Of a DNA stretch of 64,000 nucleotides, positions 13,030-55,107 are shown in pieces (position 1 is the stretch's first letter; every line of letters begins with the position of its first letter). Source of the DNA: Escherichia coli (GTDB lineage: Bacteria > Pseudomonadota > Gammaproteobacteria > Enterobacterales > Enterobacteriaceae); the NCBI RefSeq assembly GCF_041886205.1, contig NZ_CP169029.1, one strand, 5' to 3'. The notes under the pieces are model-generated. The model ran no database searches. It was given only the letters and a program-made list of their open reading frames with translations, and had not been told where the DNA came from. Position numbers and translations under genes: made by a program.

Positions 13030-13154
13030 TGTTACTTACCTGTACGCATTCTTTCGAATTTAGTGTTATCAGATAAGTTTGGTTGAGATTTTTAGAATTT
13101 GAGAAATTTCAGACAGGGATGAAAAGGGCGCTAACCGCCCTTGATTAAATTCTG

Positions 13155-13373
13155 TCAGGCGAGTTTTGCCTGATTGATTTGACTCAGTGGCTCATTGACA
13201 TCGAAAACTTTGGCGACAACTTCCTCAACGCCGAGATTTTTAAGTCGGGCAGTATGTTTTTCCAGATAGGCAAGGGCGCTTTTTTCATCAGTAAAAAGAT
13301 AGATCCCACCGGCTTCGTGGTTCTTTTCACTTTCTGTCCATACCTTCCACAGAAAACCAGGTTCCTGATTAAT
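13155..13373 (-). pseudogene. ydhR: ydhR, 3' fragment (codons about 31-101) separated from its 5' end by the IS insertion
   Basis: Reverse-complement translation reads ..[71 protein letters not shown]-stop; the frame is broken at 13373/13374 by the IS terminal repeat. Confidence 0.85.
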
Positions 13374-13415
13374 TGAACCGCCCCGGGTTTCCTGGAGAGT
13401 GTTTTATCTGTGAAC

Positions 13416-14306
13416 TCAGGCTGCCAGATCATCGTTTCCGATGGAAGCATAATAAGCTTTTTCTGCTTCTGCCGGAGGAGTATGGCCCAGCCTTTCCAGC
13501 AATCGTCGATTGTTATACCAGTCCACCCACGTGAGTGTGGCCAGTTCCACTTCTGCACGGTTTTTCCAGCTCTTACGGTGTATTACCTCCGCTTTGTAAA
13601 GACCATTGATGCTCTCCGCCATCGCGTTGTCATACGAGTCGCCTGTACTTCCTGTTGATGCCAGTAATCCGGCTTCCTTAAGCCGCTGTGTGTAGGCCAG
13701 CGATACATACTGAGAACCTTTATCACTGTGATGGACCGTGCCGGACGGTCGACGGGCCCATAACGCCTGCTCCAGTGCATCCAGCACGAATGTCGTTTCC
13801 ATGGACGATGAGACCCGCCACCCCACGATGTATCCGGCAAACACATCAATGATGAACGCCACATAGACGAAGCCCCGCCATGTGCTGACGTAAGTAAAAT
13901 CAGCCACCCACAGCTGGTCAGGTCGTTCTGCCACGAACTGACGGTTTACGCGGTCGCCTGCGGCAACGGCTTTCCGGCTGATGGTCGTACGGACCTTTTT
14001 ACCCCGGAGAACACCGGCAAGTCCCATAACCGCCATGAGACGTGCCACAGTGCATCTGGCCACTCTGATACCTTCCCGTAACAACTGACGCCAGACTTTA
14101 CGCACACCGTATACCTTGTGATTTTCATCGTATACGCGCTGTATCTCTTTCTTCAGCCAGTCATCGCGCTGCGCACGGGCACTGCGTTTATCCGGATGAT
14201 GTCGCTGTTGCTGACAGTGGTAATACGTTGACGGGGCAATATGCAGTTCGCTGCATAGCGGTCCGACCCCGTACTGCTCACGCAGCTTATCCAGCAGTGG
14301 CATCAT
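13416..14306 (-). CDS. IS3-family transposase OrfB (DDE catalytic domain)
   Basis: 296-aa [33 protein letters not shown].. with an integrase/DDE-type core; overlaps orfA in the -1 frame. Confidence 0.9.
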
Positions 14307-14629
14307 TTTTTCCAGAGGCGGTCGAACTCCGCCTTCGCAAAATAAGCGGAAGCCTGGCGAAGGATATCGTTACTGCGGCGCAGTTCACGATTTTCACGTT
14401 CCAGCTCTTTCAGACGCTGACGTTCAGCGGTGGTGAGCCCTCCATCACCGCCCCCGGTATCCCGCTCATGCTGGCGAACCCAGACACGCAGAGTCTCCGG
14501 CGTACAGCCAATCTTTGGAGCAATGGAACAAATTGTCGCCCATTGTGAGTCATATTCGCTCTGACTTTCCAGAACCATACGGACTGCCCGTTGACGGACT
14601 TCGGGGGAAAAACGAGTATTTTTAGTCAT
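14303..14629 (-). CDS. IS3-family transposase OrfA (helix-turn-helix and leucine-zipper part)
   Basis: 108-aa [64 protein letters not shown]..., ending ..RLWKK at an A6 slippery run immediately before the orfB start. Confidence 0.9.
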
Positions 14630-14683
14630 CCTGTTTACCTCTTTCTCAGGAAGTTTAGTCTCCAGGATTCCCGGGGCGGTTCA

Positions 14684-14773
14684 AATCGACTCAGCAAGCG
14701 GTTTAAGCTGCTCAGCCATTGCGTCGCCAAATGGGCCATTAAAAGCAAAATGAAGTTGTAACAAAGTTGCCAT
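14684..14773 (-). pseudogene. ydhR: ydhR, 5' fragment (first 30 codons) upstream of the IS insertion
   Basis: Reverse complement encodes [30 protein letters not shown], then runs into the IS end. Confidence 0.85.
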
Positions 14774-14880
14774 AGCGATTCTCCTTCTGATAACGCATAC
14801 GAAGACAGTGTAAATCTTTTAACGTATTGGATACAGAGAAGAAACAGAGGGAAAAAGGAGAAGACCAGATTAAGAAAATC

Positions 14881-14957
14881 TGGTGCGTCCGAGTGGACTC
14901 GAACCACCGACCCCCACCATGTCAAGGTGGTGCTCTAACCAACTGAGCTACGGACGC
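14881..14957 (-). tRNA. tRNA-Val, first of a tandem pair (valV/valW locus; which copy is which not resolved)
   Basis: 77-nt reverse-complement sequence GCGTCCGTAGCTCAGTTGGTTAGAGCACCACCTTGACATGGTGGGGGTCGGTGGTTCGAGTCCACTCGGACGCACCA with encoded CCA end; anticodon read as GAC. Confidence 0.9.
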
Positions 14958-25388: not shown

Positions 25389-25497
25389 CAGTTGCTGACA
25401 ACGTGCGATTTATCTTGCCGAATGCGCTGTTAACGCCTCATCCGCGTTGGCATGGTAAGCGAAGCGCATTAGGCAATACTGCATTTGCCATCAGTTA

Positions 25498-52314: not shown

Positions 52315-55107
<2,793 letters not shown>

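Follow-up and report, generated by a model that had tools for sequence, protein, structure and literature searches.

IS629, a member of the IS3 group within the IS3 family, was described in Escherichia coli O157 and in Shigella. For E. coli and Shigella it is one of the best-catalogued insertion sequences, and an element is given this name when it is at least 95 % identical in nucleotide sequence to the ISfinder reference, which comes from S. sonnei. IS1203 and IS1203v are the IS629 isoform of O111 and O157 STEC. The subtypes of IS629 diverge from each other by 4-5 %, the element was reported to show no sequence-based target preference, and its presence or absence is used for typing, for example in a scheme of 47 sites (Rump et al. 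2011, PMC3271280).

We analyzed a 64-kb stretch of E. coli DNA (64,000 nucleotides, referred to below as the window) in which an insertion sequence (IS) lies within ydhR. The insertion is almost certainly a complete, apparently functional IS629 that recently integrated into codon 30 of the chromosomal ydhR gene, and we found no evidence that contradicts the identification as IS629. The window element shares with the IS3-family members IS911, IS3 and IS2 the TG...CA termini, the duplication of 3 bp, the DDE transposase and an orfA and orfB that are linked by a -1 frameshift; the copy-out-paste-in pathway via a circle is presumably shared as well. At the sequence level these are different elements. 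The results described below concern the structure and age of the insertion, and the repeated use of the same target nucleotide, and of the surrounding 800 bp or so, by other copies of the IS629 family.

Structure of the insertion in ydhR

The element, its ends, the duplicated target and the two parts of the interrupted gene are positioned in the window as follows.

13374..14683, minus strand: complete copy of IS629 (IS3 family), 1310 bp, with its orfA-to-orfB sense on the minus strand, as for ydhR and ydhS
14659..14683, minus strand: left inverted repeat (IRL, orfA side), TGAACCGCCCCGGGAATCCTGGAGA
13374..13398, plus strand: right inverted repeat (IRR, orfB side), TGAACCGCCCCGGGTTTCCTGGAGA, tip inward
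13371..13373, no strand: left copy of the target-site duplication (TSD), AAT, which is ATT in the ydhR sense (codon 30)
14684..14686, no strand: right copy of the target-site duplication, AAT
14684..14773, minus strand: ydhR codons 1-30, a fragment that stops at the TGA in the IS tip (14681-14683)
13155..13370, minus strand: ydhR codons 31-101 and stop codon, with no upstream in-frame start

The terminal inverted repeats are imperfect, with 23 of their 25 nucleotides paired and the tips TGAACC...GGTTCA, and the 64-kb window contains two copies, and no more, of the 14-nt tip TGAACCGCCCCGGG, one at 13374 on the plus strand and one at 14683 on the minus strand. The AAT/AAT duplication is a perfect one of 3 bp, a length that agrees with the 3-4 bp reported for IS629 (Rump et al. 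2011, PMC3271280), and both copies map to K-12 1746787-1746789, which is the ATT of ydhR codon 30. Deletion of the element and one AAT in silico yielded a 306-nt open reading frame encoding a 101-codon YdhR, the gene differing from that of K-12 by five synonymous changes and the protein being identical to its K-12 counterpart; the reconstructed protein also matches NCBIfam NF008333 and the PDB entries 2ASY, 1WD6 and 2HIQ. A preliminary description of this DNA, made from the sequence alone, had given the same coordinates, the 1310-bp length, the termini, the intact orfA and orfB, the 3-bp AAT duplication and the uninterrupted ydhR that is rebuilt when the element is removed, and in all of these points our reading agrees with it.

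The 3' part of ydhR is preceded by no in-frame ATG, GTG or TTG, and its frame encounters two stop codons within the 36 nt of IS sequence that adjoin the junction; this part is presumably untranslated. Judged from these reading frames, the insertion is a null allele of ydhR, consisting of a 30-aa stub and a 3' part that lacks a start codon. The gene is non-essential. The 5' end of ydhR is also covered by a full-length match to the Rfam family 'Bacterial antisense RNA HPnc0260' (RF02194) at 14757-14919 on the plus strand (112 bits versus a gathering score of 59). It is antisense to this end of the gene and likewise to the spacer between ydhR and valW and to the tRNA-Val in its 3' half, and the complement of the tRNA gives part of the score.

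Transposase genes and frameshift signals

The coding part of the element contains the following features.

14303..14629, minus strand: orfA, 327 nt with the stop codon counted in, 108 aa, HTH_Tnp_1
13416..14306, minus strand: orfB, 891 nt, 296 aa, in the -1 frame relative to orfA; HTH_21, rve and rve_3
14306..14311, minus strand: A6 run (AAAAAA-TGA) where orfA and orfB overlap, presumed to be the -1 slippery site for a 404-aa OrfAB
14232..14348, minus strand: ALIL frameshift-stimulating pseudoknot (Rfam RF01497), matched over its full length with 120.2 bits versus a gathering score of 50 (E 6.6e-32)

Both orfA and orfB are intact and overlap by ATGA immediately after the A6 run, which is presumed to be the position of the slip that generates OrfAB. 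RefSeq labels identical copies as a joined coding sequence of 1214 nt with the term 'programmed frameshift'. The 404-aa fusion is recorded as a called gene on one contig only, and further IS copies and sites were collected with OrfB, instead of OrfAB, as the query. OrfB scored 314.6 bits against the NCBIfam model of the IS3 family transposase (NF033516, cut-off 160), OrfA matched the N-terminal section of the same model, and the fused 404-aa protein contains the Pfam domains HTH_Tnp_1, HTH_21, rve, rve_3 and rve_2. The DDE triad of OrfB is intact, with D136, D195 and E231 at spacings of 59 and 36 residues, and K238 is located at E+7.

These features are compatible with a mechanism in which a -1 ribosomal frameshift on the A6 run, stimulated by the ALIL pseudoknot, would fuse OrfA and OrfB to give the DDE transposase OrfAB. 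The element would then be copied out into a circle in which its two ends abut, and the circle would be pasted into the target through a 3-bp staggered cut, the repair of which would leave the AAT/AAT duplication. We infer this pathway from the established biology of the IS3 family and from work on frameshifting and circle-mediated copy-out-paste-in transposition in IS3-family members and in IS1203v/IS629 (bioRxiv 10.1101/2023.06.07.543989).

Family and subtype of the element

The window element has a size within the range of about 1.2-1.55 kb, imperfect inverted repeats of the TG...CA type, overlapping orfA and orfB with an A-rich slippery site, a frameshift-stimulating RNA, a transposase with a helix-turn-helix (HTH) and a DDE (rve) domain, and a duplication within the range of 3-4 bp; as far as a sequence can tell, every defining feature of the IS3 family is present. 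It is 99.5 % identical over its full length, with identical 1310-bp boundaries, to the element annotated by its depositors as 'IS3 family IS629' in the Stx2a phage Stx2_499 (LC567824.1). The two differ at approximately 6-7 nucleotides and match in length, in termini and in the layout of a 327-nt OrfA and an 891-nt OrfB. The name IS629 used here is based on this depositor annotation, with its 99.5 % identity and equal boundaries, and on the literature.

IS1203 and IS1203v have the length, architecture, inverted-repeat tips and frameshift pseudoknot of the window element. Near-identity to the O111/O157 isoform was nevertheless not found, as the copies that are labeled IS1203 family or reside in STEC are 95-97 % (95.0-97.2 %) identical to it, a value that fits the divergence of 4-5 % reported between IS629 subtypes (PMC3271280). 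By these alignments the window element is an isoform-level relative of IS1203 that belongs to a different subtype, and it is not the O157-type variant. Its subtype is that designated plainly 'IS3 family transposase' in RefSeq (WP_151327001.1), unlike the copies designated 'IS3-like element IS1203 family', which sit at other positions in ydhR.

Copies that are 100 % identical to the window element over 1310 bp were found in many E. coli chromosomes and plasmids, in plasmids of Salmonella enterica and, at 701-2010 of AF017626.1 (L037), in the integrase gene of phage 21, beside icd. The copies in the phage 21 integrase gene and in Salmonella plasmids indicate that this exact variant moves between replicons and genera. 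Of 5426 complete E. coli genomes, 4263 gave a match to the IS629 family, and the presence of IS629 therefore does not point to O157 or Shigella. The preliminary reading of the element as IS629/IS1203-like and of the IS3 family is therefore supported by the NF033516, Pfam and ALIL matches and by the 99.5 % identity to IS629, but the O157:H7 and Shigella lineages, which it mentioned as rich in IS629, are not singled out by the element, given the frequency of IS629 in the species and the 95-97 % identity to the IS1203 copies.

Recent insertion into a conserved site

The window aligned to the K-12 MG1655 chromosome (1760158..1697456, reverse complement) with 99.3 % identity in two blocks, and the break between the blocks occurs only at the 1310-bp element. 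Further indels relative to K-12 are a gap of about 16 bp at 25427-25440 and two indels of 1 bp each. The statement in the preliminary description that the element is the only accessory DNA in the window thus holds relative to K-12, and the alignment confirmed the empty site and the duplication (K-12 1746787-1746789). The gap at 25427-25440, the only other indel in the window that is longer than 1 bp, is a cluster of small gaps totaling about 16 bp versus K-12 1736021-1736046, in the sodB-ydhP intergenic region. The window also carries internal repeats at 52362-52882, with a periodicity of about 96 bp and 87-92 % self-similarity, which correspond to K-12 1708575-1709095 inside rsxC and appear to be equal in copy number to those of K-12.

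A synthetic query representing the empty site was contiguously covered in 5404 of the 5426 complete E. coli genomes. An origin from Shigella was considered; the flanks nearest to those of the window proved to be from E. coli, strain VE-T9 (L007) being one example. Five genomes with an intact ydhR (L005, L006, L007, L009 and L010) differ from the window by 0-1 SNP in 5659 ungapped aligned columns upstream of the insertion site. Since ydhR is intact in these relatives, the insertion is, on this comparison, younger than the split from very close relatives of the window strain and is therefore recent, as had been proposed earlier and as the perfect duplication also indicates. The junction was absent, in the orientation of the window, from the 5426 complete RefSeq E. 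coli genomes, and the junction 26-mer GCTGAGTCGATTTGAACCGCCCCGGG gave 0 matches in species-representative genomes and JGI metagenome contigs.

One could envisage that the 1.3-kb block is an original part of the locus that K-12 and the other strains have lost; this would explain the bare presence/absence polymorphism and nothing beyond it. We consider this explanation extremely improbable, because the block has inverted-repeat termini and is bordered by a perfect 3-bp codon duplication inside a conserved open reading frame, the site is uninterrupted in 5404 of 5426 genomes, and identical copies reside in hundreds of unrelated contexts; the reconstruction of the empty site, which gives an intact YdhR identical to that of K-12, refutes it. 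It is also very unlikely that the copy is a dead relic, that is, an old insertion or one bearing an inactivating change, in view of its 100 % identity, along all 1310 bp, to numerous copies located on different replicons, the intactness of its open reading frames, DDE triad, slippery run, pseudoknot and both inverted repeats, and the existence of genomes that lack the element and are 0-1 SNP away in the flanks. We favor a recent insertion of a functional element, and the intactness of the copy, together with its identity to many dispersed copies, suggests that it is probably active.

Repeated insertion at the same nucleotide

The stop codon contributed by the IS tip explains why the 30-aa YdhR stub is at times annotated as a gene, and this exact peptide was recorded in 62 blocks of the assembly collection. 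Ten of the stub loci were retrieved, and all ten have an IS629-type end after codon 30, at the nucleotide used in the window, which we designate site A. The element is opposite to the window orientation in nine of the ten; only L017 has the orientation of the window, and its IS end is 94.7 % identical to the window element, the variants at the stub loci covering a range from 94.7 to 100 %. The flanks of the stub loci form three haplotype groups, which are separated from each other and from the window by 23-67 SNPs, with one flank SNP located only 18 bp from the site A junction. K-12, in which the site is empty, nests 1 SNP from one occupied genome, and the flanks of L011, L012, L013 and L015 are identical. 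The complete genome of strain 2013C-4974 carries an insertion at site A in the opposite orientation, with the AAT duplication seen in the window.

From these haplotypes, orientations and variants, we count at least three, and probably five, independent insertions at the site A nucleotide in unrelated lineages. As the same nucleotide has been hit independently in other lineages, the junction is homoplasic and by itself a poor lineage marker. This weakens the preliminary suggestion that the junction could serve as such a marker, as does the empty site in the closest relatives (0-1 SNP).

A candidate IS629 hot spot around ydhR

IS629-family copies were located at approximately 17 distinct positions or end-points between K-12 1746207 and 1747027, at least 16 of these insertion points or IS end-points lying within about 820 bp besides site A. 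Two strains have a copy at the intergenic position K-12 1746207-09, with variants that are 100 % and 95 % identical to the window element, and the position overlapping the ydhR ATG (K-12 1746698-700) is also occupied in two strains, by variants of 100 % and 97.9 %. A position referred to here as site E (K-12 1746981-83/84) is occupied in O157:H7 F8798, with the duplication ATT, and in O55:H7 DEC5E, with the duplication GATT and a different IS subtype. Site E is empty in the window.

13169..13187, plus strand: site E, the empty second hot-spot motif CCTGATTGATTTGACTCAG, near the ydhR 3' end

An IS copy near site A was detected in 11 genomes in the same orientation and in 12 genomes in the opposite orientation, compared with 0 and 1 genomes when identically built queries were used for two control loci, the non-essential ydhJ and malY. 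These counts indicate that the target is non-random, site A and its ydhQ-valVW-ydhR surroundings of about 800 bp being repeatedly hit by the IS629 family. No paper linking IS629 to ydhR was found in the literature, and the locus appears to be a hot spot of IS629 that has gone unreported.

Three IS629-family copies in this region have adjacent deletions and a fourth is truncated, and none of these has a target duplication. The copy at L012 6091-7400 is accompanied by the absence of 237 bp of ydhR 3' sequence, that at L039 1834-3143 by the absence of 47 bp, and that at L051 2079-3388 by the loss of the tRNA-Val gene valV; the truncated IS (L046 1561-2355) lies beside a group II intron. L012 and L046 have in common the end-point K-12 1747027, which is inside the terminator-like hairpin of ydhR. 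A copy inside ydhS (L011 8245-9554, TSD GGCC, K-12 1747627-30) was found in a genome that also bears the ydhR codon-30 insertion, and another copy, with the TSD TATC, is located at L010 10841-12150, between a ydhW-like gene called at L010 9947-10585 and what lies beyond it.

Target choice

On the plus strand of the window, site A reads CCTGATT[AAT]CGACTCAG and site E reads CCTGATTG[ATT]TGACTCAG. Both sites are in ydhR, and they have in common the motif CCTGATT-N3-4-YGACTCAG, with 7 + 7 identical bases. The pattern CCTGATTN{3,4}YGACTCAG matched 0 of 100 shuffled versions of the window, and in the window itself it is found intact only once, at 13169-13187, which is site E. The resemblance between the two sites suggests that target choice may be directed by sequence or by shape. 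Among 12 further IS copies with duplications of 3-4 bp, no obvious shared target motif was seen, and several of these copies have RTCR directly 5' of the duplication. In the case of IS911, targeting of sequences resembling the inverted repeats has been described. We rejected a target of this kind at site A, since alignment of IRL and IRR to the surrounding 80 bp gave a score of 8, which is equaled or exceeded by 28 % of the background 80-mers of the window.

The recurrence of IS629 at this locus could be attributed to selection for the loss of ydhR, or to common descent combined with recombination, rather than to a preference of the transposase. Insertions in ydhR should be tolerated, as the gene is non-essential and of unknown function, and strains that are related can have inherited the same insertion, as may be the case for L011, L012, L013 and L015 with their identical flanks. 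Selection for a null allele, however, needs no identical nucleotide, and the recurrent sites include an intergenic position (1746207-09) and one at the start codon, as well as two that have the motif of 7 + 7 identical bases. Also against this reading is the presence at site A of both orientations, of IS subtypes that are 94.7-100 % identical to the window element, and of haplotypes 23-67 SNPs apart, one SNP being only 18 bp from the junction. Furthermore, the two non-essential control loci gave 0 and 1 genomes versus 11 and 12. We therefore regard selection or descent as an unlikely cause of the recurrence. As for the positive proposal, that the ydhQ-valVW-ydhR region is a hot spot for the IS629 family specifically and has recurrent targets that are precise to the nucleotide, two of them in ydhR with a common motif, we consider the arguments for and against it to be evenly balanced.

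Possible effect on ydhS

The reading direction of the transposase genes is toward ydhS and away from the tRNA-Val side, as the preliminary description had stated in proposing that neighboring transcription may be affected. A hairpin is located between the element and ydhS.

13124..13142, minus strand: terminator-like hairpin 3' of ydhR, between the IS and ydhS, MFE -17.1 kcal/mol, z -2.58

The hairpin is GC-rich and is followed by UUUC, and it failed the T-tract rule of the terminator scan. A consensus scan detected no outward, hybrid or sigma-70-like promoter at or across the IRR junction, and the native transposase promoters of the IS3 family are weak. The shared strand and direction are what speaks for an insertion that drives or alters ydhS expression, either by read-through or from an outward promoter; against these stand the result of the promoter scan, the GC-rich hairpin with its UUUC, and the general weakness of the native promoters, and we judge an effect of this kind improbable. 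Thus, the reading direction proposed earlier was found, whereas the effect on ydhS is unsupported in view of the negative scan for an outward promoter and of the terminator-like hairpin that precedes the gene; read-through into ydhS is possible but equally unsupported.

Discussion

IS629 is an already known element, and its insertion described here is a routine gene disruption. As an element it carries little weight, since IS629 is well catalogued and ydhR is non-essential. What the analysis adds is the homoplasic junction and an apparently undescribed IS629 hot spot, which together provide a modest lead on the target choice of IS629.

Typing by IS629 assumes that an occupied site reflects common descent, and at least three, and probably five, unrelated backgrounds have an insertion at site A. 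If the ydhQ-valVW-ydhR region is indeed a hot spot, typing by the presence or absence of IS629 can be homoplasic, and the target choice of IS629 would be partly directed by sequence or structure, contrary to what was reported (PMC3271280). If, moreover, genuine recognition of the target underlies the hot spot, the latter would offer a natural substrate of approximately 20 bp for the study of target choice by an IS3-family transposase.
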